From: an uncultured Anaerolinea sp.
GTDB taxonomy: Bacteria > Chloroflexota > Anaerolineae > Anaerolineales > UBA4823
NCBI GenBank assembly: GCA_964531975.1
Contig: CAZHFU010000012.1
Coordinates: 12,705 to 76,704, forward strand
DNA: 64,000 nt
Direction: 5' to 3'
A program made the position numbers and the translations under genes. Shown piece after piece: positions 14,259 through 44,458 of this stretch; within the stretch, counting starts at the first letter, position 1, and the number at the start of each line of letters is the position of its first letter. The notes beneath the pieces were generated by a model, which saw only the letters and a list, made by a program, of their open reading frames with translations, was not told where the DNA came from and made no database searches.

Positions 14259-14276
14259 GGCCAGGTGGGCTTATTT

Positions 14277-15536: not shown

Positions 15537-15590
15537 AATATTGGTAGAGAATGGCGGCTGCTAAACATCGCCGCCGTCAGGAGGAGAGCA

Positions 15591-16235
15591 ATGCCCGGAA
15601 TGTTATGCCCAAGTTGCAACACCCCCGCCCCGGCTGGGGCGATCTTCTGCGATTTCTGCGGGTTCGACCTGCGCACCGTCAACAGCGAGGCGCTCGCCAC
15701 TCAGCTTGCCTACATGCCCGCGTCCGCCTCTAATAGCCCGGTTTGCCCCATGTGTGGGCATCCGAACGTGCCAGGGGCGGCGTTTTGTGAGAATTGCGGC
15801 GCGCAGTTGTCGTCATCCGTGATTACACCGGGGGGCGAGTCGCCATCAGCCGCGCCTTCGCTGCCTGCTGCGCCATCGCTTGCGGCTGCGCCTACCCCGG
15901 CCGGTGGTTTCGTCACCGGTCGCCTGGTGGTCAACGCCGGCCAGGCGGCATTAGAAATTCCCCCCGGAAAGACTACCGTGGTATTGGGGCGTGAAGACCC
16001 GGTGAGCGGCGTATTTCCAGATATTGATTTAGACCCCCATGGTGGGCACGAGAACGGCGTGGGCCGCCGTCACGCCCAATTGGTATGGGTGAATGGACAG
16101 GTGTGCTTGGAAGACCTGGACAGTGTGAATGGCACTACGCTCAACCACATCCGTTTAGCGCCTCATCAGCCGCAGCCGCTCAGCCCAGGGGATGAGATCT
16201 TGCTGGGTAAGCTAGCCTTAACCTACCAGGCCTGA
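15591..16235 (+). CDS. Double zinc-ribbon + FHA domain protein
   Basis: CPSC..FCDFC and CPMC..FCENC; VLGR...VGRRHAQL...DLDSVNGT; AGGAGG SD. Confidence 0.9.
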   Translation: MPGMLCPSCNTPAPAGAIFCDFCGFDLRTVNSEALATQLAYMPASASNSPVCPMCGHPNVPGAAFCENCGAQLSSSVITPGGESPSAAPSLPAAPSLAAAPTPAGGFVTGRLVVNAGQAALEIPPGKTTVVLGREDPVSGVFPDIDLDPHGGHENGVGRRHAQLVWVNGQVCLEDLDSVNGTTLNHIRLAPHQPQPLSPGDEILLGKLALTYQA

Positions 16236-16245
16236 GACTGTCGCA

Positions 16246-17520
16246 ATGCCTTTCTGCCCTGATTGCCACGCCGAGGTCACCGATACGGCCCGCTTTTGCG
16301 ATAACTGTGGCTACCCGTTAAGCGCGCCGCCGTCTCGCGTCCCTGCGCCAGTGCAAACACCCGCCGCGGCGGCGCGCCCGAGCTTGCCGGCGGCAGCCCC
16401 GCCGGCGGCCGCTCATCCGCCGAGCGCATTTGCCTGCCCCGCCTGCGGAATAGAAAATGTGGCCGGGGAAATATTCTGCCAAAATTGCGGCGAAACCCTG
16501 CCGCCGCTGAGCAGCCGCCTGCCGTCTGCTGCGCCGCTCAACCCGCCGCCGGCCCACAGCACTGCCGCGCCGGCAACGCTGCCCTGGCCGTCTGCACCCG
16601 AGGCGACCATCTCAACGCCACCCGCCGCCCCGCTCGGCCCCACGCCAACGCCGCCTGCGCCGCCCATCCCGCCTGCTTCAGTCCCGCCCAGCCCCCGCAA
16701 CCTCCCGGCGGCCAACCTGGCCTCCGCGCCACCTGCCGCCCCGCTCGACCCCACGCCAACGCCGCCTGCGCCGCCCATGCCGCCTGCTTCAGTCCCGCCC
16801 AGCCCCTCCAACCTCCCGGCGGCCAACCTGGCCCCCGCGCCTCCCGGCGCTCCGCTCGGCCCCACGCCAACGCCGCCTGCGCCGCCCATCCCGCCTGCTT
16901 CAGTCCCGCCCAGCCCCCGCAACCTCCCGGCGGCCAACCTGGCCTCCGCGCCACCTGCCGCCCCGCTCGACCCCACGCCAACGCCGCCTGCGCCGCCCAT
17001 GCCGCCTGCTTCAGTCCCGCCCAGCCCCTCCAACCTCCCGGCGGCCGACCTGGCCTCCGCGCCTCCCGGCGCTCCGCTCGGCCCCACGCCAACGCCGCCC
17101 AACGACGCCCCGCCCTACCAAACGGCCGCCTTAAACCCACTGCCGCCAGACGAAGCGGATATTCGCCCTGCGCTTATCGCGCCGCCGCCTTCTCCCGGAC
17201 GCCTGGTGCTGCGCGCCACCGGGCAAGCCATTCCCCTACCGGCTGGTTCCAGCGAAGTGCTGATTGGCCGCTCCGACCCGATAAAGGGGGTCTATCCCCA
17301 CATTGATCTATCTCCCTTTGGCGGCGACAACAGCGGTGTATCGCGCCGGCATGCCCGCCTGCTCTTTGTGGCCGGCAGCGTCACCGTCGAAGATCTGCAC
17401 AGCACCAACTTCACCTTTATTAACCGCCAAAAATTGGAGCCTGGGCGACCATATCCCCTCCACCCTGGCGATGAACTACGCCTGGGCCTGATGGCGCTGA
17501 TTTACCAGGCCGGCGGTTGA
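16246..17520 (+). CDS. Double zinc-ribbon + Pro/Thr repeat linker + FHA domain protein
   Basis: CPDC..FCDNC, CPAC..FCQNC; IGRSD...VSRRHARL...DLHSTNFT. Confidence 0.9.
   Translation: MPFCPDCHAEVTDTARFCDNCGYPLSAPPSRVPAPVQTPAAAARPSLPAAAPPAAAHPPSAFACPACGIENVAGEIFCQNCGETLPPLSSRLPSAAPLNPPPAHSTAAPATLPWPSAPEATISTPPAAPLGPTPTPPAPPIPPASVPPSPRNLPAANLASAPPAAPLDPTPTPPAPPMPPASVPPSPSNLPAANLAPAPPGAPLGPTPTPPAPPIPPASVPPSPRNLPAANLASAPPAAPLDPTPTPPAPPMPPASVPPSPSNLPAADLASAPPGAPLGPTPTPPNDAPPYQTAALNPLPPDEADIRPALIAPPPSPGRLVLRATGQAIPLPAGSSEVLIGRSDPIKGVYPHIDLSPFGGDNSGVSRRHARLLFVAGSVTVEDLHSTNFTFINRQKLEPGRPYPLHPGDELRLGLMALIYQAGG
16614..17100 (+). repeat. In-frame 111-bp (37-aa) tandem repeat, about 4.3 copies, alternating A/B variants
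   Basis: CCGCTCG anchor recurs at 16630, 16741, 16852, 16963, 17074 (period 111). Confidence 0.95.
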
Positions 17521-17536
17521 AGGCGGGCAGCGCTTA

Positions 17537-19681
17537 GTGATCGGCCCCGGAGATATCCTCAATAACCGCTATCGGGTTGTTCGCACCTTTGGACAGGGTG
17601 GGTTCAGCACGGTATATCGCGCCTGGGATATGGTGCTGGGCTGTCCGTGCGCCCTCAAGGAAAATCCCGACGCCAACCCGCATGTGCAGCGTCAATTCCT
17701 GCGCGAAGCCAAGATATTAGCTAATTTACATCAGAATAACCTGCCGCGGGTGAGCGATTTTTTTATTGAGAACGGCCGCCAATACCTGGTGATGGAATTT
17801 GTGGAGGGGCAAGACTTGCAAGACATGCTGGAGGATCGCGGCGGGCCTCTTCCAGAAGACCAGGTTCTACCGTGGATATTGCAGGTGTGCGACGCCCTCA
17901 CCTATTTGCATACTCGCAAACCGCCGATTATCCATCGCGATGTCAAACCAGCTAATATCAAGATCACCCCCGACGGCATCGCGATGCTGGTCGATTTTGG
18001 CATCGCCAAACAAGAACCGGCCCACAAGAAGACCACCGTGGCAGCCCAGGCGGTGACGCCCGGCTTTTCTCCTCTGGAGCAGTACGGCAAGGGCAGCACC
18101 GACGCGCGCACCGATGTGTACGCCTTGGGAGCCACGTTGTACACTATGCTGACCGGCGTCGAACCGCCCGAAAGTGTGCAGCGCGTTGTCCACGATCCAC
18201 TCACCCCGGCGCGCACACACAACCCTGGCATCTCGCTGCGCAGCGCGGCGGCATTGAGCCGCGCCTTGCAGATGGATCCGCAGCAGCGTTTTCAAAGCGC
18301 CGCCGATTTCAAGGCCGCCCTGGCCCCCACAACCAGTATGCATCCCTCGGCGCAGCGGCTGCGCCCTCCCTCGGCGAGCGGCGTGGCCGGGGCGGCGGGC
18401 GGGGGTTCGCTGCCGGTCGGCGGTGCGCCGGCAGGCGGGTTTGCGGGAGGCCAATCTGCGGCTGCCCCAATTTGGGGTAAGCTGGCCGGGTTTGGGCTGG
18501 CGGCGCTGGTTTTATTACTGGTGGGGCTGCTGCTGCGCCCCACCGCCCGTCCTCCCCGCCCCTTTCCTGTCGAGCAAGCTGCCGCGCCATCAACCGCCGC
18601 GGCCAGCATGACCGCGCCGGGTGCGCCCACCTCGTTGGCCGCGAACGAGGCAGCGCCCTCCGCGGCGCTCGCCCAAACCATGGCATCGCCAGACCCGCAA
18701 ACCATCGCCGCCAACGCCACGCTTACCCCAGCCCCTTCCGCCGCTCCCTCCGCCACCCCCGCCCTCATGCGCTACACGGTGCAGGCGGGCGATACCTGTT
18801 CGGAGATCGCCGAACGCTTTGGGGTCAGCCTGCGCGAGCTGTCAAAACTAAACGATTTACCCGCCGACTGCGGCGTGATTTACCCCGGCCAGGCGCTGCT
18901 CGCCCCTATCCCAGATGTATACGCCATCGCCACGCTTACGCCTACCCCCAATCAAGCCATCGCCACGGCCATAGCCGCGGTGGACGGAGCGGCGCTGGTA
19001 TATGTGCCCTCCGGCCAGTTCTTGATGGGGTCGCTGGTGGATGATGTGCGCGGCGGCGATGAAGAGAAACCCCAACACAGCGTATACTTGAAAGCCTATT
19101 GGATCGACCGCACCGAGGTGACCAATGCCATGTACGCCCGCTGTGTGCAGGTGGGGAAATGCCGACCGCCGGCGCAAAGCAGCTCGCAAACCCGCCCCGC
19201 CTATTATGACGAGGCGGAGTTCGGCGCTTTTCCGGTGGTGTACGTGGCCTGGCAAGACGCGCAAGCCTACTGCGCTTGGGCCGGGCGGCGCTTGCCCAGC
19301 GAAGCCGAATGGGAGAAAGCCGCCCGTGGCCCCGACGGCGGGCTGTATCCCTGGGGCGACGCCTCCCCCACCCTCAAGTTGGCGAACTTTGGCGGATTGT
19401 TGGGCGACACCACCGCGGTGGGCAGCGCCCCCGCCGGGGCCGCCCCCTATGGCGCTTTGGACATGGCCGGCAACGTGGCCGAATGGACCGCCGATTGGTT
19501 CAACAAGGCCGCCTATACCCTGTCGGAATTCTCGAACCCCTCCGGCCCGGCCACGGGCGAATTCCGTGTGCTGCGGGGCGGTTCGTGGTTCAACCAGGCC
19601 AACACTCTGAGGGCGGCTTTCCGCTTGTGGAATTATCCCGATTTGCGCAGCAACACCATTGGATTTCGCTGTGCCAGGTAA
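17537..19681 (+). CDS. Hanks-type Ser/Thr kinase - TM - LysM - FGE-sulfatase (SUMF1-like) domain
   Basis: GQGGFS, ALKE, HRDVKPANI, DFG; TM WGKLAGFGLAALVLLLVGLLL; LysM YTVQAGDT..IAERFGVS; RLPSEAEWEKAARG, DMAGNVAEW, RGGSW, GFRC. Confidence 0.93.
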   Translation: MIGPGDILNNRYRVVRTFGQGGFSTVYRAWDMVLGCPCALKENPDANPHVQRQFLREAKILANLHQNNLPRVSDFFIENGRQYLVMEFVEGQDLQDMLEDRGGPLPEDQVLPWILQVCDALTYLHTRKPPIIHRDVKPANIKITPDGIAMLVDFGIAKQEPAHKKTTVAAQAVTPGFSPLEQYGKGSTDARTDVYALGATLYTMLTGVEPPESVQRVVHDPLTPARTHNPGISLRSAAALSRALQMDPQQRFQSAADFKAALAPTTSMHPSAQRLRPPSASGVAGAAGGGSLPVGGAPAGGFAGGQSAAAPIWGKLAGFGLAALVLLLVGLLLRPTARPPRPFPVEQAAAPSTAAASMTAPGAPTSLAANEAAPSAALAQTMASPDPQTIAANATLTPAPSAAPSATPALMRYTVQAGDTCSEIAERFGVSLRELSKLNDLPADCGVIYPGQALLAPIPDVYAIATLTPTPNQAIATAIAAVDGAALVYVPSGQFLMGSLVDDVRGGDEEKPQHSVYLKAYWIDRTEVTNAMYARCVQVGKCRPPAQSSSQTRPAYYDEAEFGAFPVVYVAWQDAQAYCAWAGRRLPSEAEWEKAARGPDGGLYPWGDASPTLKLANFGGLLGDTTAVGSAPAGAAPYGALDMAGNVAEWTADWFNKAAYTLSEFSNPSGPATGEFRVLRGGSWFNQANTLRAAFRLWNYPDLRSNTIGFRCAR

Positions 19682-26203: not shown

Positions 26204-26324
26204 CTGTTAGAGCATCGCAGGCGGTAAATGCCTGCTTTCGCCTGCATTTACCGCCCCCAAAAATTATATATAATGTATAATATAACCGTCCCCCGTTTTT
26301 AATCGACATTAGGACGGTGCGCCC

Positions 26325-27092
26325 ATGCTCCACCCGCTGCAACCCACGGAAAACGATCTGCTGCCCAAGAAATCGCTCAAAGACAGCGTATTCGACTATT
26401 TGCACACCCGCATCGTGGCCGGCAAGGCCGCCCCTGGCGAGTGGCTGCGCCAGGAAGACATCTCCACCCATTTGGGCGTGAGCCAAACGCCGGTGCGCGA
26501 AGCCCTCGACCTGCTGGTAGCCGTGGGCCTGGCTGAGCGTGTGCCCTACCGCGGCGTGCGTGTGCCGGAATTGGACGCCGCCGAAATCATCGACGCCTAT
26601 GTGCTGCGCCTGATCTTAGAAACCGCCGCCGCCCGCCTGGCCGCCCTAAACATCACCCCCGCCGAAGTGGAACATTTGCAAACGCTGCTGGATCGCACCC
26701 GCACCCTGGTCACGCTGGACGATATGCCCGCCTTGCAGCAGCTCAACCGCCGCTTCCATAACGACCTGGCCGCCGCCTCCCACAACCCCTTGCTCAGCAA
26801 ACATTATCAGAACGCCGCCAACAAATTTCCCGATTGGCGGCTGTACGAAAGCATGTTTCGCCACCCCGAAATGCTCAAAACCAGCCTGCCGCGCGAGCTG
26901 GGCGAACACCAGGCCATGCTCACCGCCCTGGCCGCTCACCAACCCGACCAGGCCGTGGCGGCTGCCACCATCCACATTCGCAACCTGGCCCACGAATTAG
27001 TAACCTTCCTCAACATTCCTTCCCATCTGCTGGCGGCCAAGGAGGCCCAGGTGGCGGTCTTGCTGCAAAGCAGCCCGCCGCCCACCGCCTAA
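26325..27092 (+). CDS. GntR family (FCD/FadR-type) transcriptional regulator
   Basis: LRQEDISTHLGVSQTPVREAL wHTH; NRRFH and EHQAML FCD motifs. Confidence 0.92.
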   Translation: MLHPLQPTENDLLPKKSLKDSVFDYLHTRIVAGKAAPGEWLRQEDISTHLGVSQTPVREALDLLVAVGLAERVPYRGVRVPELDAAEIIDAYVLRLILETAAARLAALNITPAEVEHLQTLLDRTRTLVTLDDMPALQQLNRRFHNDLAAASHNPLLSKHYQNAANKFPDWRLYESMFRHPEMLKTSLPRELGEHQAMLTALAAHQPDQAVAAATIHIRNLAHELVTFLNIPSHLLAAKEAQVAVLLQSSPPPTA

Positions 27093-27136
27093 GCCGTTAT
27101 TTCTACATTATCCAATCACTTGCAAGGAGGCAACCC

Positions 27137-27784
27137 ATGACGACTGAATTGTTCCAAGCGATGGCGCAAAGCATTATCGACGGCGACGCCGAAGCCGCGG
27201 AGGCGCTGGCCCGCCAGGCCATTGAAGCCGGTATCGACCCCCTGGAGGCGATCAACCAGGGCTTTGTAGTAGGCGTAAACCATGTGGGCAAAGAATTCGC
27301 CGCCGGCGAAGCCTTTTTGCCCGAACTCGTCATGGCCGGCGAAGCCATGAAAAGCGCCGTCGCCACCCTGGAGCCGGAAATGGCCCGCCGCGGAACCAGC
27401 CGCGAAATGCTGGGCAAGGTGGTGCTCGGAACCATTCAGGGCGATATTCACGAAATCGGCAAGACCCTGGTGGGAACCATGCTGACAGCCGCCGGGTTCC
27501 AGGTCTACGATTTAGGCGTGGATGTGCCGGTGGAAAAGCTGGTGGCGAAGGCCCGCGAAGTGGAGGCCGACATTATCGGCGTCAGCGCCCTGCTCACCAC
27601 CACCATGGTGCGCCAGCGCGATGTGGTGGAAGCCCTGGAAGATATGGGTATGCGCCCAAAGGTGAAAGTGATGGTGGGCGGCGCGCCGGTAACCCGTGAA
27701 TGGGTGGAAGAAATCGGCGCGGACGGCTATTCGGAAGACGCCATCGGCGCAGTAGACGTGGCCCGCCGCCTGGTAGGGAAATAG
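27137..27784 (+). CDS. Corrinoid (B12-binding) methyl-carrier protein, MtgC/MttC-like
   Basis: FLPELVMAGEAM cap, GTIQGDIHEIGK (DxHxxG), GVSALLTTTM, VMVGGAPV; AAGGAGG SD. Confidence 0.95.
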   Translation: MTTELFQAMAQSIIDGDAEAAEALARQAIEAGIDPLEAINQGFVVGVNHVGKEFAAGEAFLPELVMAGEAMKSAVATLEPEMARRGTSREMLGKVVLGTIQGDIHEIGKTLVGTMLTAAGFQVYDLGVDVPVEKLVAKAREVEADIIGVSALLTTTMVRQRDVVEALEDMGMRPKVKVMVGGAPVTREWVEEIGADGYSEDAIGAVDVARRLVGK

Positions 27785-27794
27785 GGAGCGCAGC

Positions 27795-29258
27795 ATGGCC
27801 CGCAAAATCAAATCGATTACCAACCCTAAATTGGGGCTGAGCATCCTCACCCCGCAAGAAGTGGAACGCCTGCACGGCGCTACCCTCGATGTGATCGAAA
27901 AGACCGGCGTACGCTTTCCCTCGACGCGCGCCTTGAAAATTTGGGCCGACGCCGGAGCCGATGTAAATTGGGATACCCAGGTGGTTAAAGCCAGGGGGCA
28001 TCTCATCGACGCCGCCCTGCGCCAGGCCCCGCCCGCCTACACCCTGGCAGCCCGCGCCCCCGCCCAAGATCTGCCGCTGGATGGCAACCACGTTCACCTG
28101 GGAACTGACGGCTGCGGCGTGGAGGTGATCGATCTATACAGCAGCCAGCGCCGCCGCACTTGCCTGCAAGATGTGGCCGAAATCGCTCGCCTGGGCGATT
28201 ACCAGGAAGAGATCGCCTTCCATTGGGTGGCCGTCTCGGCCCAAGATAAACCAGCGCACACCCGCGGCCTGCACGAGCTGAAGGCGGTGTGGGAGAACTC
28301 GACCAAGCATGTGCAAACCGAAAGCGTCTATTCCGAAGCGGAAGCCAAAGCGGCCATTGAAATGGCCGCCGTGGTGGCGGGCGGGCGCGAACAGCTGCGC
28401 CAACGTCCGCTGCTTTCGATCATGCAATGCACCGCCCCACCCCTGGGCCACGACGGCGGCAGCCTGAACGCCGCCCTCATCGCCGCCGAAGCAGGCATGC
28501 CGGTGGGATTCATGACCATGGCCTCCATGCTTACCACCGGCCCGGCCACCCTGGCGGGCAACCTGGTGGTGGGCAACGCCGAAGTCATCGCTGGTACGGC
28601 CCTGATCCAACTGGCCTACCCGGGTGCGCCAGTGTTCTACGCTGCCGCCCAAACCGCCTCCGACCTGCGCACCGGCGCCTATACCGGCGGCGGCCCCGAA
28701 GATTTCCTGTTCGGCGCAGCCACCAACGTGCTGGCCGATTACTACAACATTCCGCTTTCAATGGGCTCCTTCGCCACCGGCGCTAAGCAGCCCAACTGGC
28801 AGGCTGGGGTCGATAACAGCCTGTCAACCTTTATGGCCTGCGTGGTAATGTCGGATATGCTCTTGGGGGCCGGCTTTTTGCATGGCAGTCGCATATGGTC
28901 GTACGCCGAAATGCTCATGGACTGCGAAATCTTCAGCATCGTGCATAAAATGCTGGGCGGCATCGTCATCAACGACGAAACCCTGGCGCTGGACGTGATC
29001 AACGCCGTGGGGCCGGGCGGCAACTTCCTCGCCCAAAAGCACACCCTGCGCCACATGCGCGAGATTTTCAACCCTCAGTACATGGATCGCCGCCCGTATA
29101 ACGAATGGGAAGAAAAAGGCGATGGCGCTGTGGAATGGGCCGCCGCCAAGGCGCGCCAGATTTTAGAGACCCACCAACCCGACCCGCTGGCCGCCGGCCT
29201 TTCCGCCGAGCTGGCTCGCATCATCGCCGCCGCCGAGCGAGAACATCCGCTGGCTTGA
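27795..29258 (+). CDS. Trimethylamine methyltransferase (MttB) family protein, non-pyrrolysine, copy 1
   Basis: LDVIEKTGVRF, TLAGNLVVGNAE, QLAYPGAPVFY, ALDVINAVGPGGNFLAQKHT. Confidence 0.92.
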   Translation: MARKIKSITNPKLGLSILTPQEVERLHGATLDVIEKTGVRFPSTRALKIWADAGADVNWDTQVVKARGHLIDAALRQAPPAYTLAARAPAQDLPLDGNHVHLGTDGCGVEVIDLYSSQRRRTCLQDVAEIARLGDYQEEIAFHWVAVSAQDKPAHTRGLHELKAVWENSTKHVQTESVYSEAEAKAAIEMAAVVAGGREQLRQRPLLSIMQCTAPPLGHDGGSLNAALIAAEAGMPVGFMTMASMLTTGPATLAGNLVVGNAEVIAGTALIQLAYPGAPVFYAAAQTASDLRTGAYTGGGPEDFLFGAATNVLADYYNIPLSMGSFATGAKQPNWQAGVDNSLSTFMACVVMSDMLLGAGFLHGSRIWSYAEMLMDCEIFSIVHKMLGGIVINDETLALDVINAVGPGGNFLAQKHTLRHMREIFNPQYMDRRPYNEWEEKGDGAVEWAAAKARQILETHQPDPLAAGLSAELARIIAAAEREHPLA

Positions 29259-29267
29259 GAGGACGCT

Positions 29268-30725
29268 ATGCAGCCCAAAATTCAACTCCTTTCCGAAGAC
29301 CTGGTGCAGCGCACCCTGGATGAAGCCTATGCCCTGATGCGCGATCACGGCCTAAAGGTGCAAGCGCCCGAGGCCCGCCGTCTGCTGGCCGAGGCCGGGG
29401 CGCGCATCGACGAGGCCAACGAAATCGCCTACCTGCCCGAAGACTTGGTGCGCCGGGCCATGTCCACCGCTCCCAGCCAATTTACCCTCTACAATCGCCA
29501 GGGTGAGGCGGCCGTCAACTACGGCGGCGACGCGGTGCATTTCGACCCCGGTTCATCCGGCGTCCACATTCTCGACCCCGACACGCTCGAACATCGCCCG
29601 TCCTACACCAAAGACCTGGTGCGCATCATCAAAGTGGCCGAAATGCTGCCCCAGATCGACGCCCAATCGACAGCGGTGGTATGCAGCGAAATTCCCAAAG
29701 CCATCGGCGACCTGTACCGCCTGTACCTGGTGCTGCGCTACTCGAGCAAGCCCATCATCACTGGCGCGTTTTCGATCAGCACCCTGCAAACCATGATCGA
29801 CATGATGGCGCTCTTCGCCGGCGGGCGGCAAGCCCTGGCCGAAAAACCGCAGGCGGTGTTCGATGTGTGCCCCTCGCCGCCGCTGATCTGGAGCGATTTC
29901 GGGGCGCAGAACCTGATCGAGCTGGCGCGGGCCGGCGTTCCGGCGCAGATGGTCTCGATGCCCCTGGCGGGCGCGGCCGCGCCGGTGACGCTGATCGGCT
30001 CGGTGGTGCAGCACGCCGCTGAGTCGATGAGCGGCGTGGTTATCCACCAGCTGGCAAACCCCGGCGCGCCGATCGTATGGGGCGGCGCGCCCGCCATCTT
30101 CGATATGCGGAAAGGAACCACCCCCATGGGCGCCATCGAAACCGCCATGATCGACGCCTCCTACGCCCAGGTAGGCAAAGCCCTCCACCTGCCCACCCAT
30201 ACCTACCTGGGCGCTTCCGACGCCAAGCTGGTGGACGCCCAGGCCGGCCTGGAGAGCGGTATCACCGCCATCATCGCCGCCCTGGCGGGCGTCAACATGG
30301 TTTCCGGCGTGGGTATGCTCGATTTCCTGGCCTGCTTCAGCGTCGAAAAGCTGGCGATAGACGCCGAAGCCGTGGGCATGGCAAAGCGCCTGATCCGCGG
30401 GGTGCAGGTGCATACCGACACTCTGGCGCTGGAGATGTTCGCTAACATTGCCTTCAAAGGTGAGTTTCTCAAGCAAAAGCAAACCCGGCAGCTGTTTTCC
30501 AAGGAGCAGTATTTACCCTCCCCCATCATCGATCGTGGTTCAGTGCGCACCTGGCAAGAAGAAGGCGGCGCCGATGCCTTCTCCCGCGCCAAGGCCCGTG
30601 TGCAAACGCTGCTGGCGGATTATCAACCGCCCAACCTGCCCGCCGGTCAGCTCGCAGCCCTGGAAGAAATGGTATGGACCCTGGCGCAAACAGCCGGCAT
30701 GGAGAAGCTGCCCGCCGCTGAATAG
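29268..30725 (+). CDS. MttB family protein, non-pyrrolysine, copy 2
   Basis: APVTLIGSVVQHAAE, QLANPGAPIVWG, DAKLVDAQAGLE, GMLDF. Confidence 0.92.
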   Translation: MQPKIQLLSEDLVQRTLDEAYALMRDHGLKVQAPEARRLLAEAGARIDEANEIAYLPEDLVRRAMSTAPSQFTLYNRQGEAAVNYGGDAVHFDPGSSGVHILDPDTLEHRPSYTKDLVRIIKVAEMLPQIDAQSTAVVCSEIPKAIGDLYRLYLVLRYSSKPIITGAFSISTLQTMIDMMALFAGGRQALAEKPQAVFDVCPSPPLIWSDFGAQNLIELARAGVPAQMVSMPLAGAAAPVTLIGSVVQHAAESMSGVVIHQLANPGAPIVWGGAPAIFDMRKGTTPMGAIETAMIDASYAQVGKALHLPTHTYLGASDAKLVDAQAGLESGITAIIAALAGVNMVSGVGMLDFLACFSVEKLAIDAEAVGMAKRLIRGVQVHTDTLALEMFANIAFKGEFLKQKQTRQLFSKEQYLPSPIIDRGSVRTWQEEGGADAFSRAKARVQTLLADYQPPNLPAGQLAALEEMVWTLAQTAGMEKLPAAE

Positions 30726-30869
30726 CGCCAGCTTGCAGCCGGGGATGACGCTGGGAATTATTGTGGTGTAGGCCTGCAGCGGCAATCTTGCCCAGGCGGC
30801 CTGGTGTTATGCCAGGCACGACGCTGTTAACCGCCGCCATCCTGGCCGGATGTTCGACAAAGGAAGCCA

Positions 30870-32969
30870 ATGCTCGATCTCGAAACCCTACTGCGCGTAC
30901 CATACGTGGACGCGTCTTTCGATATTTCCCCCGACGGCCAGAATGTGGCCTTCGCCTGGAATCAAACCGGCCAGTGGGAGATTTACGAAGCGCCTGTGGC
31001 CGGTGGAGAGCCGCGCCGCCTCACCCACGGGGCCGGGGCCAAATTCGCCCCGCGCTACGCCCCCAACGGCCAGCGCCTGGCCTATGTGGTGGACGAGGAC
31101 GGCGGTGAGAACTTCGACCTACACTTGCTCGATCTATCTACCGGGGCAGCCCGCAATCTGACCCCCAACACCCCCTTTGCCCTCCAGCCCAGCTTCGCCT
31201 GGCTGCCGGATGGCGAGCGCATCGCCTGCCTGGCCGACCCCGAAGGCCGCTTCAAAACCTACCTGCTCACCCTGGCAAGCGGCCGGCTCGAAAAGCTGTT
31301 CGAAAGCCGCGGCCCGGCCTGGGAGTTGCATCTCTCGCCAGACGGCAGGCAGCTGGCCGTGGTGTCGGAAGGAACCGGGCAAGATTACGCCGTCCACATT
31401 GTACCCCTGGTAGGTGCGTCAACGGGCGGCGCTTCAACGGGCGGCGCTTCAATCGGCGGCGCTTCAATCGGCGGCGCACCGACTGACCCCGCGCCAATTA
31501 TCGATGCGCCTGTCGATAGCCAACTCCCTGACCACTCCCGCAGCGGTGGGCCTTCACTGGCGGCGCGCCCGGCCCTGGTAGTGGCGCTGGACGGGCGCAG
31601 CCTCAACGCCATGCAAGTATGCTGGTCGCCCGATAGTCAGGCCCTGGCGTTCTCGTCTGATGAACCGGGGCGGTACGAAATTGGCTGCTTCTACCCGTCC
31701 GATGAGCGTATCGAGTGGTTAACCCAGAGCGGCCCCGGCGATAAAGGCGAGCCGGCCTTCTCGTCCGATGGACGCCGCCTGGCTTATATCATCAGCGACG
31801 GGCCGGATACCCGCCTCGGACTGCTGGACCGGCGCACCCAGGCCGAACGCGCCTGGCAAATTGAGCCGGGCGTCCATGCCGCCCCAGCCTTCACCCCTCA
31901 GGCCGATAACCTGGTGCTGTTATTCGATAACCCGCGTCGTCCCGGCGATTTGTGGCGCTTTCACCTACCGGCGGAAGCTTTCCACCCCCTCACCCACTCC
32001 CTGCCGCCCGGCCTGACCCCCGATGATTTCGTCATGCCGCGCCAGGTCGTTTACCCCACCCCCGACGGCTGTCTGGTTCCGGCGCTGCTGTTCACCTCCC
32101 CCAACCTGGCCCCCGGCCCGGCCACAGACCTCGCCCATCCATTGATGAAGGCATCCACCAACGGCAACCCGGCAAGCAATCCGCTTGCAAGCCGCGCCCC
32201 GGCAGGCGAAACATCCCAAAGCGTCATCCCCGCCGGCGGAGCCTCCGCAAGCCAAACCCCCGTCAGCGGCCAGTCGCCGCGCTTGCCGCCGGCGGTGATC
32301 ATCATTCACGGCGGGCCAGGCTGGCTGTTTCAATACCTGTGGTATCCCGTCATGGCCCACTGCGCCTCGCGTGGCTGGACGGTGCTGGCCCCCAACTATC
32401 GCGGCTCCACTGGCTATGGGCGCGCGTGGCAGCTTGCCAACCGCTTCGAAATGGGCAACTTAGATACGCTCGATGTAGCCTGCGGCGTCGATTACCTAGT
32501 GAACCACGGCCTGGCCGATCCGCAGCGCATCGGCGTCACCGGGCGCAGCCACGGCGGCTATCTCACTATGAGCTGCCTGACGCGCTACCCGCAGCGATTC
32601 GCCGTGGGGTCGGCCATCGTGCCGTTCCTAAACTGGTTCACTTCGCACGCCGCCAGCCGCGACGATCTCAAACATTGGGATATCGAAAACATGGGTCGCC
32701 CGCAAGACAACGCCGCCCTATGGCGCGAGCGTTCGCCGTTCTTCTTCCTCGACCGCATCCAGGCTCCGGTGCAGATGGTGTGCGGCGCGCACGACCCGCG
32801 TTGCCCGGCTTCCGAATCGCTGGCGGCGCGCGACCGCCTGGCCGAATTGGGCAAAACGATGGAATTGATCCTCTACCCGGACGAAGGCCACACTTTCTTG
32901 AAGCTTGAAAACGTGGTCGATCACGAACTGCGGCGGATTGCTTACCTTGCTCAAGTGTTGGAAGCATGA
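30870..32969 (+). CDS. S9 family peptidase (beta-propeller + alpha/beta hydrolase) with two low-complexity insertions
   Basis: PD40-like repeats; IHGGP, PNYRGSTGYG, GRSHGG nucleophile, HDPRC, DEGH. Confidence 0.92.
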   Translation: MLDLETLLRVPYVDASFDISPDGQNVAFAWNQTGQWEIYEAPVAGGEPRRLTHGAGAKFAPRYAPNGQRLAYVVDEDGGENFDLHLLDLSTGAARNLTPNTPFALQPSFAWLPDGERIACLADPEGRFKTYLLTLASGRLEKLFESRGPAWELHLSPDGRQLAVVSEGTGQDYAVHIVPLVGASTGGASTGGASIGGASIGGAPTDPAPIIDAPVDSQLPDHSRSGGPSLAARPALVVALDGRSLNAMQVCWSPDSQALAFSSDEPGRYEIGCFYPSDERIEWLTQSGPGDKGEPAFSSDGRRLAYIISDGPDTRLGLLDRRTQAERAWQIEPGVHAAPAFTPQADNLVLLFDNPRRPGDLWRFHLPAEAFHPLTHSLPPGLTPDDFVMPRQVVYPTPDGCLVPALLFTSPNLAPGPATDLAHPLMKASTNGNPASNPLASRAPAGETSQSVIPAGGASASQTPVSGQSPRLPPAVIIIHGGPGWLFQYLWYPVMAHCASRGWTVLAPNYRGSTGYGRAWQLANRFEMGNLDTLDVACGVDYLVNHGLADPQRIGVTGRSHGGYLTMSCLTRYPQRFAVGSAIVPFLNWFTSHAASRDDLKHWDIENMGRPQDNAALWRERSPFFFLDRIQAPVQMVCGAHDPRCPASESLAARDRLAELGKTMELILYPDEGHTFLKLENVVDHELRRIAYLAQVLEA
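31413..31481 (+). repeat. In-frame 15-bp tandem repeat (GASTG/GASIG x4+) inside S9 peptidase
   Basis: GGTGCGTCAACGGGC GGCGCTTCAACGGGC GGCGCTTCAATCGGC GGCGCTTCAATCGGC GGCGCACCG. Confidence 0.9.
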
Positions 32970-33106
32970 TGGGCGGGAAGGGTGGTTAATCATCATATAC
33001 CCCCAGCGGTTGCCGGAGGCGTGACAAACGTTAGGGCGCGTTCCTGTATCATCAAGGCGGCTTTCCGCGCTCCCTAAGCAAGACCCAATATCCAGGAGAA
33101 AAACCC

Positions 33107-34270
33107 ATGGCAAACTACTACGAAAAAGCAAAGGCCCAAGCTGCGCAGCTAAGCGAATGGCGGCGCGCCATTCACCGGCGGCCCGAACTCGGCTTTCAAG
33201 AACAGCATACCGCCGCCCTGGCAAGCCAAATCTTAGCCGGGCTGGGCGGGCGGGTGCGCACCGGGGTGGGCAAAACCGGGGTGGTGGCCGATTTTGGCTC
33301 CCGCCGCCCGCTGATCGCCATCCGCGCCGACATGGACGCCCTGCCCGTTACGGAAGCCAACGTTTGCGATTACGCTTCGCAAAACCCCGGCCTGATGCAC
33401 GCCTGCGGCCACGACTCTCACGTGGCGATGGCCTGCGGAGCAGCCCGCCTGCTCACCGAAAGCGGCTTCCCCGGCAGTCTGCGGGTGCTGATTCAACCCT
33501 CGGAGGAAATGAACGACAGCGAAGGTCTGAGCGGCGCGCCGCGCATGATCGCCGATGGAGCGATGGAGGGGGTCGATAAAATCATCGCCCTGCATGTGGA
33601 ACCGGATACGCCGGTGGGCGGCATTCGTGTGGCCGCCGGGCCATTTTCAGGCGGGGTCGATTCGTTCTTCGCCACCATCACCGGCACAGGCGGACACGGC
33701 GCCGCCCCCCACACCACCATCGACCCCATTCACATCGCCGCCCACGTCATCCTGGCGCTTAACGCCATCGTCTCGCGCCGGCTCGACCCGTTCGCCCCGG
33801 CCGTGGTCAGCCTGGGCAGCATTCACGCTGGTCAGGCCGAGAACGTCATCCCCGCCCAGGTGGAAATCAACGGCACGATCCGCTATATGCAGAAGGCGGT
33901 GCAAGCCGCCATCCACGCCGAAATCCGGCGGGCGTTTGAGATCAGCCGGGTGTTCGGCGGCGATTATGCGCTCAAGATCGAGGTGGGCGTGCCGCCGATG
34001 CTCAACGACGCCGGGGTGGTGGATACCATCATCGCCGCCGCTCATGCCCTGCTCGGGCCGGACGCCCTGCTTCCCCCCCAGGATGGGCTGGGGGCCGAAG
34101 ATTTCGGCTGCTTTTCAGAAGCGGCCCCCGGAGCCATGTTCTCGCTGGGCTGTGCTCTGCCCGGCGAGGCGCGCCACCTCCACAGCCCGGTGTTCGATAT
34201 TGATGAAGCCTGCCTGCCAGTGGGCGCGGCCTTGTTGGCCGAGACCGCCCTCAGATTAATGAACCAATAA
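33107..34270 (+). CDS. M20 family amidohydrolase
   Basis: HRRPELGFQE, RADMDALP, MHACGHD, QPSEE, GAEDF, LHSP. Confidence 0.93.
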   Translation: MANYYEKAKAQAAQLSEWRRAIHRRPELGFQEQHTAALASQILAGLGGRVRTGVGKTGVVADFGSRRPLIAIRADMDALPVTEANVCDYASQNPGLMHACGHDSHVAMACGAARLLTESGFPGSLRVLIQPSEEMNDSEGLSGAPRMIADGAMEGVDKIIALHVEPDTPVGGIRVAAGPFSGGVDSFFATITGTGGHGAAPHTTIDPIHIAAHVILALNAIVSRRLDPFAPAVVSLGSIHAGQAENVIPAQVEINGTIRYMQKAVQAAIHAEIRRAFEISRVFGGDYALKIEVGVPPMLNDAGVVDTIIAAAHALLGPDALLPPQDGLGAEDFGCFSEAAPGAMFSLGCALPGEARHLHSPVFDIDEACLPVGAALLAETALRLMNQ

Positions 34271-34280
34271 AGGAGACCCG

Positions 34281-35708
34281 ATGCCCGGTCTGGCTATCCC
34301 GAAACTAAGCTTACTTACTGACGAACAAATTCAAAGCGTGCATGCCCATTCGCTGCGCATTTTGGCCGAAACCGGCGTGCGCATCGACTCGCCGGCGGCG
34401 CTGGCAATTTTGGGCAACGCCGCCGGGGCCACGCTGCGCGCCGGCGGGCGCGTCACCTTCGACGCCGAGCTGGTCGAATGGGCGGTTCAGGCCGCCCCTG
34501 CCGCAGTAGACGTATTCGACCGCGACGGGGCGCTGCGCTTCCGCTTAGGGCTGGATCGGGCGCGCTTTGGAGCCGGCGTAACCAACCTGTTCTACCAGCA
34601 CCCCGCCAACGACCGCCTGGCCCCTTTCACCCGCGCCCACATGACCCAGGCGGTGCGCCTGGCCCACAGCCTGCCCCATTACGATGTGGTTTCGACCATC
34701 GGCGTAATTCAAGATTACCCGCCCGAAAGCGCCGATCTCTACGCCACCCTGGAGATGGTCGCCAACACCACCAAGCCGCTGGTGCTGCTCATCTCGGATG
34801 AAAATCTGTTCGAGCCGGCCCTGGACTTGCTGCAGCATCTGCACGACCGCCCCCTGGGCGAACGGCCATTTGTCATCCCCTACTTCAACCCCATCACCCC
34901 TTTGGTGATTAACCAGGGCACTGCCGACAAAATGCTGACCGCCATTGGGCGAGGCCTACCCGTGATCTATTCCAACTATAGTATGGCGGGCATGTCTACA
35001 CCCATCACCCCGGCGGGAACGCTGGCGCTGATGAACGCCGAACTGCTGGCCGGGCTAACCCTGGCACAGCTGGCCCGCCCCGGCACACCGGTAATCTTGG
35101 GCAGTTTGCCGGCCTATTTTGATATGCGTCAAATGAAGGACTACTACGACCCGCAGACCATCCTGCTCAACCTGGCTTGCGCCGAAATGCTGGCCTATTA
35201 CCACCTGCCGCACGCCGGCACATCGGGCAGCGGGCTGGGCTACGGGGCCGACCTGGCCGAAAGCGGGCTGCTGTGGATGAACCACCTCACCGCCCTGCTG
35301 GGCAAGGTGGGGCTGGCCCCGTTTGTGGGCGGCGTGTTAGGATCGAAAGCCTTCTCGCCCACCATGCTGGTCTACGCCCATGAGATCATCGACCAGGCGA
35401 TCCGCTTCAGCGAAGGTTTCGTGCTTGATGAGGACAGCCTGGCGCTAGACGAGATCGCCCAACGTGGCCCTGGTGGCAGCTTCCTGGACAGCGACCTGAC
35501 CCTGCGCTTATTCCGTAAGAATTATTACGAGAGCAAATTGTTCCCCCGTTGGAGCCTGGAGAAGTGGCAAGGGCTGGGCCGCCCCAGCCTGGACGAGCGT
35601 TTGCGCCGGCACACTCAAGATCTGATCGACGCCGCGATGCGCACGCCCCCACCCAACGCCGCCGGCCTGCAAGCCCGCGGCGAGGCCTGGATTGCGAAGC
35701 GTGGCTGA
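34281..35708 (+). CDS. MttB family protein, non-pyrrolysine, copy 3
   Basis: ILAETGVRI, PITPAGTLALMNAELLAG, QLARPGTPVILG, ALDEIAQRGPGGSFL. Confidence 0.9.
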   Translation: MPGLAIPKLSLLTDEQIQSVHAHSLRILAETGVRIDSPAALAILGNAAGATLRAGGRVTFDAELVEWAVQAAPAAVDVFDRDGALRFRLGLDRARFGAGVTNLFYQHPANDRLAPFTRAHMTQAVRLAHSLPHYDVVSTIGVIQDYPPESADLYATLEMVANTTKPLVLLISDENLFEPALDLLQHLHDRPLGERPFVIPYFNPITPLVINQGTADKMLTAIGRGLPVIYSNYSMAGMSTPITPAGTLALMNAELLAGLTLAQLARPGTPVILGSLPAYFDMRQMKDYYDPQTILLNLACAEMLAYYHLPHAGTSGSGLGYGADLAESGLLWMNHLTALLGKVGLAPFVGGVLGSKAFSPTMLVYAHEIIDQAIRFSEGFVLDEDSLALDEIAQRGPGGSFLDSDLTLRLFRKNYYESKLFPRWSLEKWQGLGRPSLDERLRRHTQDLIDAAMRTPPPNAAGLQARGEAWIAKRG

Positions 35709-36354
35709 ACCGCCTGCCATCCTCCCGGTGGGCGAAAGCGCCCCCGAAGACGCCGCGCGCCTGCATCAACAGATGATAGCGCTGGCGCGGCGCGACCTGG
35801 CGTTGCAGGCCATTATTGATCGCTATGGTCTGCCGCCCTACTGGCAGCGCCCTCGCAGTTTTCCCGGCCTGCTGCGCATCATCCTAGAGCAGCAGGTCTC
35901 GCTGGCTTCGGCCAAAGCCGCCTACGAAAAGCTGCTCCAGCTGCTCCCCGATCTGACGCCGGGCGCCTTCCTCACCCTGGACGAGGCCGCTTTGCGCCAG
36001 GCGGGTTTCAGCCGCCAGAAGATCGCCTACAACCGAATTTTAGCCGCCGCCCTCCTCAGCGGCGAATTGGATCTGGACGACCTGGAGCAGCAGGATGATG
36101 AGCAGGTGCGCGCCAGGCTGATACGGCTGAAAGGCATTGGTCATTGGACCGCGGATATTTACCTGCTGCTGGCGCTGCGCCGCCCCGATGTGTGGCCGGT
36201 GCAAGATTTGGGCTTAATCGGCGGGGTGCAGCGCGCCTATGGTTTAAACGCGCCGCCCTCCCGGGAGGCGCTGCTTACCCTGGGAGAGCGGTTCAGGCCG
36301 TATCGTTCCACCGCCACACGGCTGTTCTGGCATCGGTACTTGAGCGGCAAGTAG
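35701..36354 (+). CDS. DNA-3-methyladenine glycosylase II (AlkA-like, HhH-GPD)
   Basis: ILEQQVSLASA, LKGIGHWTADIYLL HhH, WPVQDLG, RPYRS; GTG start overlaps MttB3 stop. Confidence 0.88.
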   Translation: MAEPPAILPVGESAPEDAARLHQQMIALARRDLALQAIIDRYGLPPYWQRPRSFPGLLRIILEQQVSLASAKAAYEKLLQLLPDLTPGAFLTLDEAALRQAGFSRQKIAYNRILAAALLSGELDLDDLEQQDDEQVRARLIRLKGIGHWTADIYLLLALRRPDVWPVQDLGLIGGVQRAYGLNAPPSREALLTLGERFRPYRSTATRLFWHRYLSGK

Positions 36355-42654: not shown

Positions 42655-44301
42655 TTACGGCTGCGCCGCCTCTTCCACAGTGGGGGGCGGCGCAGTGAAC
42701 TGGGTAATCTGGTTGACGTAAGGCACTACCCCCTGGCACGGCTCGGTAAAGCGCGTCGAAACCACATCCCAAGTGAGTGTTCCGCCGGTTTGCCAGGCCT
42801 GGTGAATAGCAAAAGATACGCAGCCTGGCCCGACGTGATAGTTGGCGATAGTAAAACGCCACAGGTCTTCATAGGTCGCCACTCGCCCGGCCATCTCGCC
42901 GCTGGCGTTGAACACCACCCGGCTCACCTGGGCGCAGTTGGCCTTTAGCGTATTGGCGAACAGCGAAACCGTAAAGCCCACATTCGAAATATCAATCCCT
43001 GCCGGGCAATCGGCGCAGTCGGCGCGCGCTTGCAGCGCCAACGCCCCGCGCAAGATGCTGCGGTCTTTCTCGTCCAACATCAGGTAGCCGTGCGAACATG
43101 CCTCGGATGATAGGATCAACGGGCAAAATTGGCCGTAAAATTCCGGATTCCAAATAAAGATCGGATCTGCGCCCTGGTCGGTAATTTGCCCCAAACCAAA
43201 CTCATACGCCACCCGGTACATGCCCGGCCAAAACTGGCTTTCTTGGGCAAACAGATTCTTCATCAACTGGGCCGGCACGCCGGTATCACTGCTCACCTGG
43301 ATAATGCGCTGATCGAATTGATTCTGCCAATCCTCCACAATCGGGCGCGCCGTTTCCAAGCCGCAAGCGTCGGCATAGCCGTTAGGCAGCAAGCCCTTGT
43401 TCGGGCAGGCCGGCGCATCCACCACCCCCTGGGAAAGCAGCCGACCGGCCAGGTAGTAGTACGGGTCGCCGGAGGCCATCACCTCAAAATGATCGGGGGT
43501 CGTCAACCAGTCGGGGGTTTGCCCCACAGGCGGGAAGGCTTCCCAAATGCGGCTGCAGCTTGTGAGGGCCGGGCCGCTCCACTGGCTGCTGATGATATCC
43601 ACATAATAGCCGTCGTTCAGACCATCGGGAACGCGGCTCACCCCCGTTTCTAGAATGCGCACCTGGGCGGTGAAATGCTCGCTGGCATCGCCATAGCTGG
43701 AATTAGCCCAAAACTCCACCCCCACCCCCTGCACCGGCGTGGTGTACATCGGGAGGCTGCACTGGCTGCCGGCGCATTCAAAGGGCTGCCCGTCAAACAC
43801 GCCCTGGATGGAAACAATCTGCTGGTTAGGCAGCGGCTCCTCGGCGGTGAGCATTAAAGCGGGGATTTGTGGACAGAAGTTATCCGGCGGGGCGGGGTTG
43901 CAGCCTTCTAAGGCAATCGCCATGGTGGGCGAAGGCAACGTGACCGTGATCTGGCGCTCTTTTTGAAGCGAGGCGACAAAGTAAAGATAAAAGCCCTGGC
44001 AGGGCTTGCCATTTTGCTTACAATTGGGGGTGTTCCACCAGGCGGTGGCGTAATCGGCGCCGCACGAATGCGAAACCTCGCTCACGCTGGGCAAACCCTC
44101 GTGATCAATCAGCACCCGGCAGGCAATCTCGTTCGACGACCAGGCAATCAGCCACCATTCGTATTCGGTAAACGGAACGGTGACGGCGGTGGTGCGCGGT
44201 AAAGATTGGGCTAAAGCAACCTGTGTCCCCCAGATCAGCCCGCCAACCACTAACCCCAGTAACATTGCGGCTGTGGCAATGACCCAACCAATGCTTTTCA
44301 T
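42655..44301 (-). CDS. Secreted Cys-rich protein with C-terminal lysozyme/SLT-like domain
   Basis: Signal peptide; AQESQF, GLGQIT, ANYHVG resemble SLT motifs I-III; TTGACA-17-TATTTT promoter 8 nt before ATG 44301. Confidence 0.72.
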   Translation of the reverse strand: MKSIGWVIATAAMLLGLVVGGLIWGTQVALAQSLPRTTAVTVPFTEYEWWLIAWSSNEIACRVLIDHEGLPSVSEVSHSCGADYATAWWNTPNCKQNGKPCQGFYLYFVASLQKERQITVTLPSPTMAIALEGCNPAPPDNFCPQIPALMLTAEEPLPNQQIVSIQGVFDGQPFECAGSQCSLPMYTTPVQGVGVEFWANSSYGDASEHFTAQVRILETGVSRVPDGLNDGYYVDIISSQWSGPALTSCSRIWEAFPPVGQTPDWLTTPDHFEVMASGDPYYYLAGRLLSQGVVDAPACPNKGLLPNGYADACGLETARPIVEDWQNQFDQRIIQVSSDTGVPAQLMKNLFAQESQFWPGMYRVAYEFGLGQITDQGADPIFIWNPEFYGQFCPLILSSEACSHGYLMLDEKDRSILRGALALQARADCADCPAGIDISNVGFTVSLFANTLKANCAQVSRVVFNASGEMAGRVATYEDLWRFTIANYHVGPGCVSFAIHQAWQTGGTLTWDVVSTRFTEPCQGVVPYVNQITQFTAPPPTVEEAAQP

Positions 44302-44458
44302 GCAGCCTGAAAATAACATGAAGGGGGTGGTTTGTCAAGAAATTCATTGCCAGGCCCGGCGCGCATTTCAAAATTGTTTGGAGAAGCGGCTCCGGCGGGC
44401 GCGCCGGAGCCGCCGCGCACGTATTCCCAATGTGATTGAGTCGTGATAGACTCTAGCT

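Follow-up and report, generated by a model that had tools for sequence, protein, structure and literature searches.

An MttB and corrinoid protein gene cluster with an embedded S9 peptidase and M20D amidohydrolase in an uncultured Anaerolinea sp.

A cluster of seven genes, predicted to act in corrinoid-dependent methyl transfer, lies within a 64,000-nucleotide (nt) stretch of DNA from an uncultured Anaerolinea sp. (NCBI GenBank assembly GCA_964531975.1, contig CAZHFU010000012.1, positions 12,705 to 76,704), referred to here as the window. Two of the seven encode hydrolases whose orthologues recur beside MttB methyltransferase and corrinoid protein genes in many Chloroflexota. All seven are on the plus strand, and each was confirmed where the original prediction had placed it. 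In order, they encode a GntR-family regulator with an FCD ligand-binding domain (26325..27092, 255 residues; PF00392 and PF07729), a corrinoid (B12-binding) carrier protein, hereafter CoP (27137..27784, 215 residues; PF02607 and PF02310), two members of the MttB superfamily that lack pyrrolysine (Pyl), namely MttB1 of subfamily B1 (27795..29258, 487 residues) and MttB2 of subfamily B2 (29268..30725, 485 residues), an S9 serine peptidase with PD40/tricorn-type propellers and an alpha/beta-hydrolase domain (30870..32969, 699 residues; PF00326 and PF07676), an M20D-type amidohydrolase/aminoacylase (33107..34270, 387 residues; PF01546 and PF07687) and a third non-Pyl enzyme, MttB3 of subfamily B3 (34281..35708, 475 residues), which begins 10 nt past the M20 gene. 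The intergenic gaps from the GntR gene to MttB3 are 44, 10, 9, 144, 137 and 10 nt. Metagenome-assembled genomes of Anaerolinea/Anaerolineales provide the nearest relatives for every gene of the cluster, and the same contig is present in two Logan assemblies (SRR10083293 and SRR10083294).

The three MttB proteins are divergent, as had been proposed, with pairwise identities of 27.5, 26.1 and 25.6%. MttB1, MttB2 and MttB3 exceed the 25-bit cut-off of PF06253 with scores of 298, 313 and 195 bits, the matches covering approximately positions 21-498 of the 500-position model. The further claim that no MttB gene carries an in-frame amber codon also held, and no read-through is needed, because the open reading frames (ORFs) are uninterrupted and near-complete over the Pfam model. 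The TAG that ends the MttB2 gene is a true stop, since it is located past the end of that model. In the column of pyrrolysine 334 of the Methanosarcina barkeri MttB, B1 and B2 have Ala and B3 has Ser. Assignment to the Pyl-type MttB equivalog (TIGR02369) was rejected for B1, B2 and B3, which score 438, 399 and 210 bits, all under the cut-off of 525, and have no UAG; there are no pyl genes in the window. The Pyl enzyme (7XCL) nevertheless belongs to the same superfamily, and MttB2 keeps its xSDAK motif, in which Ala316 stands in for Pyl and precedes the same SDAK as in true MttB. MttB2 also triggers the Rfam model PYLIS_3 at 30213..30312 on the plus strand (40.2 bits; gathering score 38), and the first codon of the match is the counterpart of the Pyl UAG, a GCU for Ala316 in this gene. 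A Pyl recoding signal was rejected at this site, given that GCU codon, the mostly non-standard pairs and a match that follows conserved coding sequence. The match appears to be left over from coding homology with Pyl-type mttB and not to be a working element.

The best matches of all three MttBs in the PDB are MtgB of Desulfitobacterium hafniense (2QNE/9YCE) and the Pyl-containing MttB (7XCL), the latter being the top match of MttB2, and all of them are distant. The glycine betaine pocket of MtgB has been defined by mutagenesis and a ligand-bound crystal structure, with Y97 and F356 making cation-pi contacts and R312 and H348 binding the carboxylate (PMC13080624). When the three proteins were aligned with the 9YCE sequence in MAFFT, the equivalents of Y97/R312/H348/F356 were G/S/L/S in B1, S/H/S/L in B2 and V/A/P/S in B3, in an alignment that is possibly off by one residue locally because identity to MtgB is only about 25-32%. 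MtgB identity was rejected for B1-B3, none of the four substrate-binding residues being retained, which agrees with the earlier proposal that these MttBs are not of the MtgB type. Because the MtgB substrate residues are not kept, B1-B3 are not plain glycine betaine enzymes. R312 is retained in the carnitine, proline betaine, gamma-butyrobetaine and phosphocholine enzymes MtcB, MtpB, MtyB and MthB, respectively (PMC13080624); its equivalent is missing from B1, B2 and B3 alike in the MAFFT alignment. Metagenome studies routinely name non-Pyl homologues mtgB (e.g. PMC6081815), and the residue test appears to contradict the use of this label for every such homologue.

Relatives of the cluster contain two further MttB types, designated B4 and B5. 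In a distance tree and identity matrix built with several orthologues per type, B1-B5 share 22-29% identity with each other and 22-32% with MtgB and Pyl-type MttB, from which they are judged to be separate deep subfamilies rather than products of recent duplication. B1 stands out for its conservation, with identities of 74-87% to the best 120 database clusters; the figure for B3 is lower, at 58-69%. B2 is always found beside B1 in relatives. The B3 orthogroup is large, with members of 52-69% identity in Chloroflexota, Gemmatimonadota, Desulfobacterales and Acidobacteriota. NCBIfam models gave mostly generic or below-cut-off matches for the MttBs and accessory proteins. The MttB superfamily itself is very large, and a defined substrate is available for six members only (PMC12155760).

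The start of the corrinoid protein was set at the ATG at 27137, behind the ribosome-binding site AAGGAGG, and a longer ORF from 26834 was discarded. The protein carries the DxHxxG motif as DIHEIG at residues 103-108 and belongs to TIGR02370 (230.8 bits against a cut-off of 215.3), while its score of 241 bits on the MtgC model NF047995 falls under the cut-off of 310. It is single-copy, and no second corrinoid protein was found in the window by tblastn or Pfam searches. The same searches of the 64 kb detected no pterin-binding or URO-D-type methyltransferase (MT2), no RACo/RamA activase and no Opp transporter, bearing out the original prediction that the corrinoid:tetrahydrofolate (THF) methyltransferase and the RACE activator lie outside the window. 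A complete corrinoid methyl-transfer system, comprising a first methyltransferase (MT1), CoP, MT2 and activase, is not contained in the window, and MT2 and the activase are presumably encoded elsewhere in the genome. Orthologues of the GntR regulator, at 54-68% identity, lead the same cluster in the loci of relatives labelled L003, L007, L011, L049, L072 and L163-L174.

The catalytic motifs of both hydrolases are intact. The S9 protein matches PF00326 with 152 bits and has PD40/tricorn repeats and a GxSxGG motif, and its triad of Ser560 (GRSHGG), Asp642 and His674 is invariant among 10 homologues. No signal peptide is evident, and the enzyme is predicted to be cytoplasmic. Its top PDB matches are acylamino-acid-releasing enzymes (Aeropyrum APE1547, PH0594 and mammalian APEH), the alignment covering the catalytic domain only, with E values of 1e-29 to 1e-27. 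The protein is approximately 70-100 residues longer than those of relatives, owing to two Gly/Ala/Ser/Pro-rich low-complexity loop insertions (31416-31577 and 32103-32280), the first of which contains a tandem repeat (31419-31477; 15 nt, 3.9 copies) encoding (STGGA)n. The M20 protein is of the M20D type (TIGR01891, 330 bits against 153.75), with HACGHD at residue 98 and the PF07687 dimerisation domain, and its nearest structures are ILL2, YxeP and an N-acyl-glutamine aminoacylase (4EWT). An S9C peptidase acting ahead of an M20 aminoacylase is an established eukaryotic route for N-terminally blocked peptides, and in mammals such a pair reportedly degrades N-blocked peptides, as Perrier et al. 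are said to have described in 2005. Peptides with a methylated or permethylated alpha-amino group resist ordinary aminopeptidases and dipeptidases, and are formally N-substituted acyl-amino acids. Judged by its sequences, the S9/M20D pair resembles the acylpeptide hydrolase and aminoacylase route for N-blocked peptides.

The association of these hydrolases with MttB genes was examined from three anchors. Gene counts were taken from tblastn; a simple ORF caller lost genes to antisense ORFs in GC-rich DNA (e.g. cluster c16 over M20). The synteny counts are raw, with no correction for kinship, and most loci are from Chloroflexota. With M20 as the anchor in metagenome contigs, orthologues were defined as having at least 51% identity (n=11) and paralogues 33-44% (n=69). 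Nine of the 11 orthologues directly adjoin an MttB gene, with B4 upstream in seven and a B2-type gene in two, and the remaining two are on contigs of only 2.5 and 3.6 kb. The M20D paralogue loci, which serve as an internal specificity control, have an MttB gene in 0 of 69 cases. From the S9 anchor, all nine homologues (36-50% identity) lie inside MttB clusters, eight of them with M20 within two genes. For the MttB3 anchor, a profile of B3 orthologues retrieved 486 relatives from a one-genome-per-species collection, and the best 80 loci (52-69% identity) were analysed; these are mostly from Anaerolineae and other Chloroflexota, with some from Gemmatimonadota, Desulfobacterales and Acidobacteriota. 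Within 8 kb of B3 there is an M20 orthologue at 26 of the 80 loci, an amino-acid or peptide ATP-binding cassette (ABC) transporter at 21, B4 at 17, the corrinoid protein at 14 and S9 at 12, and an M20D or C45 N-terminal nucleophile (Ntn) amidohydrolase is placed at most 300 bp from B3 at 27.

Gene order is also conserved in Anaerolineae and other Chloroflexota. The order GntR-CoP-B1-B2-S9-B4-M20-B3 recurs in L003, L007 and L011, with an ABC transporter between B2 and S9 in some relatives; variants without S9 occur in L046, L049 and L072, and the window's order S9-M20-B3 is repeated in L172. Gaps between cluster genes in relatives are typically 7-30 nt (e.g. L164, L167 and L169). From the three anchors, both hydrolase orthogroups are concluded to belong, as dedicated components, to a corrinoid methyl-transfer system of Chloroflexota. 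The original prediction that the peptidases are syntenic with MttB and corrinoid genes is upheld, since linkage is seen in both directions and in many Chloroflexota, and its proviso that they might prove not to be syntenic no longer applies. A link of peptide or amide hydrolysis to corrinoid demethylation is well supported by this gene context.

The components absent from the window are found beside the cluster in some relatives. SBP_bac_5/OppBCDF importer genes are in the same gene string in L018, L031, L080, L166, L168 and L169, and upstream or downstream in L032 and L059; the nearest structures of the SBP_bac_5 protein are AppA, Lmo0135 and NikA, which do not resolve its ligand. The most complete cluster, L169, has the order B4-SBP5-OppBCDF-S9-M20-MT2-unknown-AcsV/RACo activase with a corrinoid protein nearby, and its methyl-THF:corrinoid methyltransferase scores 301 bits on NF005719 against a cut-off of 259. 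B3-MT2-RACo occurs in L031, and MT2/activase genes are near the cluster in L166. B4 is the most constant partner of S9 and M20 and is usually placed between them (L003, L007, L011, L165 and L167). It is retained in close relatives that have the same flanking genes as the window (L165 and L167), and neither B4 nor a remnant of it was found by tblastn in the S9-M20 gap (32970-33106) or the rest of the window. B5 is accompanied by a Pot-like ABC transporter in L004, L005, L020, L165 and L174. The cluster is clearly modular, and the copy in the window may be a reduced one. L165 (ERZ25039461 contig_15903) is closely related to the locus of the window and shares the LOG and Rho genes downstream; many genes of L165 are fragmented, for which assembly frameshifts are likelier than real pseudogenes.

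Around B3 and the B1-B2 pair the neighbours are more varied. B3 orthologues in some relatives adjoin polar-amino-acid ABC transporters, lysine-dehydrogenase-like genes or a C45 Ntn amidohydrolase, the last of these in place of M20. A saccharopine-dehydrogenase-family protein recurs next to B3 or B1-B2, with PH1688 (PDB 3ABI) as the nearest structure, followed by saccharopine reductases; we take PH1688 to be an L-lysine 6-dehydrogenase. In L173, CoP-B1-B2 is followed by a plain alpha/beta hydrolase, which replaces S9, and by a lysine-2,3-aminomutase-like radical S-adenosylmethionine (SAM) gene (LAM_C). Further accessory genes differ by cluster (L163 11679-13943, L164 10239-11231, L172 12892-14802 and L173 13017-15304), and include, among these four, two HemN-like radical SAM genes after M20, a weak URO-D-like protein replacing M20, and 5-oxoprolinase subunits near the cluster. 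In some Chloroflexia (L064, L069 and L074), two flavin amine oxidases and a GcvT-like folate-binding protein are encoded upstream of B3. This arrangement appears to join a corrinoid module to one for oxidative N-demethylation. Because the two amine oxidases and the GcvT-like protein adjoin B3 in these genomes, it suggests that B3 takes the first methyl group off a quaternary amine and that the oxidative enzymes remove the rest.

On balance, the cluster is probably a GntR-controlled catabolic operon for corrinoid-dependent methyl transfer, in which two dedicated hydrolases prepare or finish the methyl donors. Small peptides or amide conjugates with N-methylated amino-acid residues would enter the cell, through the operon-encoded Opp-type ABC importer in relatives and through an importer encoded elsewhere in this genome. 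The methyl groups may be carried by a quaternary or tertiary ammonium, located either in a side chain of the Lys/Orn type or at an alpha-N terminus that is blocked. The lysine-dehydrogenase-like, aminomutase-like and polar-amino-acid ABC neighbours are weak leads to the side-chain position, the first two of these giving no more than a hint of the methyl-lysine substrate originally proposed, and the S9C/M20D pairing instead points, by analogy, to blocked alpha-N termini. In the cytoplasm, the S9 peptidase, with its acylaminoacyl-peptidase-like catalytic domain, would trim the imported peptides, and the M20D aminoacylase would then cut a final amide bond beyond the reach of ordinary aminopeptidases and dipeptidases. 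MttB1, MttB2 and MttB3 would divide among themselves the demethylation of the freed methylated amino acid or acids, either stepwise on one compound, as originally proposed, or on different compounds, each enzyme methylating the Co(I) form of the one corrinoid protein by transfer of a methyl cation, and the cycle would be closed by a methylcorrinoid:THF methyltransferase and an ATP-dependent RACo/RamA-type activase from outside the window. More tentatively, and with some doubt, a wider Chloroflexota pathway may be envisaged in which methylated peptide residues (N-alpha-methyl termini, or N-epsilon-methyl-lysine/ornithine from protein or lipid turnover) are a one-carbon (C1) source, blocked peptides are imported and opened by the S9C-like peptidase and M20D aminoacylase, and the methyl-amino acids are demethylated by up to five new MttB subfamilies (B1-B5) on one corrinoid carrier. 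There is a precedent for an accessory enzyme, as the choline kinase MthK is encoded beside MthB and makes the true substrate of that MttB homologue, the first such case according to its authors (PMC12155760).

Several observations weigh against a role of the hydrolases in releasing methylated substrates. S9 in the window is separated from the genes on its two sides by 144 and 137 nt, so that its co-transcription there is putative; scanning and folding of the two gaps revealed no terminator, promoter or structured RNA, and their folding is no better than that of shuffled sequences (z = +1.1 and +2.0). Approximately two thirds of B3 orthologues have neither S9 nor M20 nearby, and CoP-B1-B2 is also found without them (L009 and L173). 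Neither SBP_bac_5 transporters nor S9/M20D hydrolases are restricted to peptides as ligands. The pathway in this host may be partial, because B4, the steadiest partner of S9 and M20, is absent. In addition, all six known MttB-family substrates are free small molecules, and the characterised non-Pyl MttBs all use free quaternary amines (PMC12155760). This last point, together with the best score of the corrinoid protein being on the MtgC model (241 bits), is compatible with the MttBs demethylating ordinary free betaines or methylamines that serve as osmolytes, while S9 and M20 belong to general peptide catabolism and share a regulon or neighbourhood without any substrate link. CoP-B1-B2 without S9 or M20 in L173 also fits such an arrangement, as do the many B3 genes that lack peptidases and are found instead by amino-acid ABC transporters or by amine-oxidase/GcvT genes typical of methylamine catabolism. 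A shared neighbourhood alone, however, hardly explains linkage that is specific to orthogroups (M20 9/11 versus 0/69; S9 9/9), or the interleaving of hydrolase genes among MttB genes at very short gaps in relatives, and the free-betaine explanation is considered unlikely. Since many B3 and some CoP-B1-B2 genes occur without peptidases, the MttBs are not strictly dependent on them, and probably act themselves on free small molecules once these are released. An accidental insertion of peptidase genes into an MttB operon of this lineage, with no functional meaning, would account for the wide gaps around S9 and for its lineage-specific low-complexity insertions, but is contradicted by recurrence of the arrangement in dozens of genomes at the species level and of contigs from metagenomes, where identity of the orthologues falls to about 40-55%, and is hardly credible.

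The nature of the hydrolysed bond and the order of the reactions may also differ from the scheme of peptide trimming followed by demethylation. Amide or ester conjugates in which a methylated amine is joined to something other than a peptide could be the substrates, such as N-acyl or lipo-amino acids whose head groups are methylated ornithine or lysine, or acylated betaines, with S9 as an esterase or amidase and M20D as an aminoacylase freeing the head group. M20D enzymes such as ILL2, YxeP and N-acyl-Gln aminoacylase are typically N-acyl-amino-acid hydrolases, and the catalytic domain of S9 is an alpha/beta hydrolase with weak matches to esterase families. The replacement of S9 by a plain alpha/beta hydrolase beside CoP-B1-B2 in L173 and of M20 by the C45 amidohydrolase next to B3 in some genomes would suit such substrates too, as would the Lys/Orn-related neighbours (saccharopine/lysine-dehydrogenase-like proteins and the LAM_C radical SAM protein). 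In contrast, a double beta-propeller S9 enzyme and Opp-type SBP_bac_5 importers, with AppA and Lmo0135 as the nearest PDB entries, are most typical of oligopeptides, and lipase or fatty-acid genes do not recur in the clusters, so that conjugates of this kind are regarded as an improbable substrate class. A reversed order, in which the MttBs demethylate intact N-methylated peptides and so unblock them for degradation by S9 and M20, rests on the same synteny as the preferred reading. The loss of the carboxylate-binding Arg312 equivalent fits a carboxylate that is tied up in an amide bond, yet the known MttB active sites are narrow triosephosphate isomerase (TIM)-barrel pockets for small ligands (PMC13080624), and ordinary peptidases would suffice for unblocked peptides, for which enzymes of the blocked-N-terminus type are unneeded. 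Demethylation ahead of hydrolysis is judged to be quite unlikely.

The cluster shares features with several known systems. As in MtgB/MtgC/MtgA of D. hafniense, a non-Pyl MttB-superfamily TIM barrel is encoded beside a small DxHxxG B12 carrier, and MT2 and an activase are required to complete the cycle; in contrast to that system, B1-B3 are only 25-32% identical to MtgB without conservation of its substrate residues, and the clusters described here hold three to five paralogues each, together with peptidases and a peptide importer. Several divergent MttBs feed one carrier in the MtqC-centred system of Eubacterium limosum (MtpB, MtcB and MtyB, with MtqA and RamQ), as they would here, although the paralogues of that organism, compared by description only, are at separate loci with their own inducing substrates and act on free betaines, whereas those of the present cluster are grouped with hydrolases (PMC12155760). 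With MthK-MthB of E. limosum the cluster would share an accessory enzyme that supplies the real methyl donor beside an MttB homologue, but that enzyme is a kinase making phosphocholine, and the peptidase and amidohydrolase here would presumably work by hydrolytic release. The acylpeptide hydrolase (S9C) and aminoacylase-1 (M20) route draws on the two enzyme families found here, in a matching logical order; it differs in being eukaryotic or archaeal, in having no link to methyl transfer and in dealing with an acetyl block, and only the catalytic domain of the present S9 aligns with its peptidase.

A full-text literature search, which covered MttB in connection with peptidases, amidohydrolases, oligopeptides, trimethyllysine and the Anaerolineae/Chloroflexi, did not turn up any account of such an arrangement. 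What appears to be new is a corrinoid MT1/CoP system with built-in putative substrate-releasing hydrolases and several new MttB subfamilies. Five deep MttB subfamilies are tied to a specific peptidase, aminoacylase and peptide importer in many uncultured Chloroflexota of sediments, soils and digesters. If the proposed operon function is correct, B12-dependent demethylation would extend from free osmolytes to methylated peptide residues, the role of several mttB copies in these abundant fermenters would be explained, and concrete candidate substrates would follow. Should methylated peptide residues indeed be a C1 source, protein methylation marks would become a new substrate class for the MttB superfamily. 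If neither holds, the synteny still guides the choice of the next MttB homologues to characterise.

A sigma-70-like promoter candidate, TTTACC-16-TATAAT, is located 5' of the GntR gene (26247..26274, plus strand; 10 of 12 consensus positions in a scan), and stands as a candidate only, since such sites are no more frequent in the region than in shuffled sequences. The flanks of the cluster consist of housekeeping genes, with metG upstream and, after MttB3, genes for an HhH-GPD glycosylase, phosphoglucomutase (on the other strand), endonuclease V, a LOG-family protein and Rho. The HhH-GPD DNA glycosylase gene (35692-36354, plus strand) overlaps the end of MttB3 by 17 nt. The genes 3' of B3 differ among relatives, and the glycosylase is probably a mere neighbour that is possibly read through. 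Elsewhere in the window, a gene for PrmA (ribosomal protein L11 methyltransferase) is located at 56006-56926 on the minus strand, beside dnaJ-dnaK and hrcA. PrmA forms trimethyl-Ala and trimethyl-Lys on L11, and residues of this kind might be recycled by the cluster; as the gene is widespread, its presence in the window may be meaningless. Two ORFs on the minus strand gave no Pfam match, one of 554 residues (42655-44319) at E <= 1e-3 and one of 314 residues (49677-50621) at E <= 1e-5. An aldehyde:ferredoxin oxidoreductase encoded in the window fits an anaerobe. Signalling genes on the plus strand at 12441-19681 encode a zinc-ribbon/PP2C phosphatase, a VWA protein and a Ser/Thr kinase fused to a LysM and a formylglycine-generating enzyme (FGE)-sulfatase domain, and a similar pair of PP2C and kinase-FGE genes is found upstream of the MttB cluster in L174.

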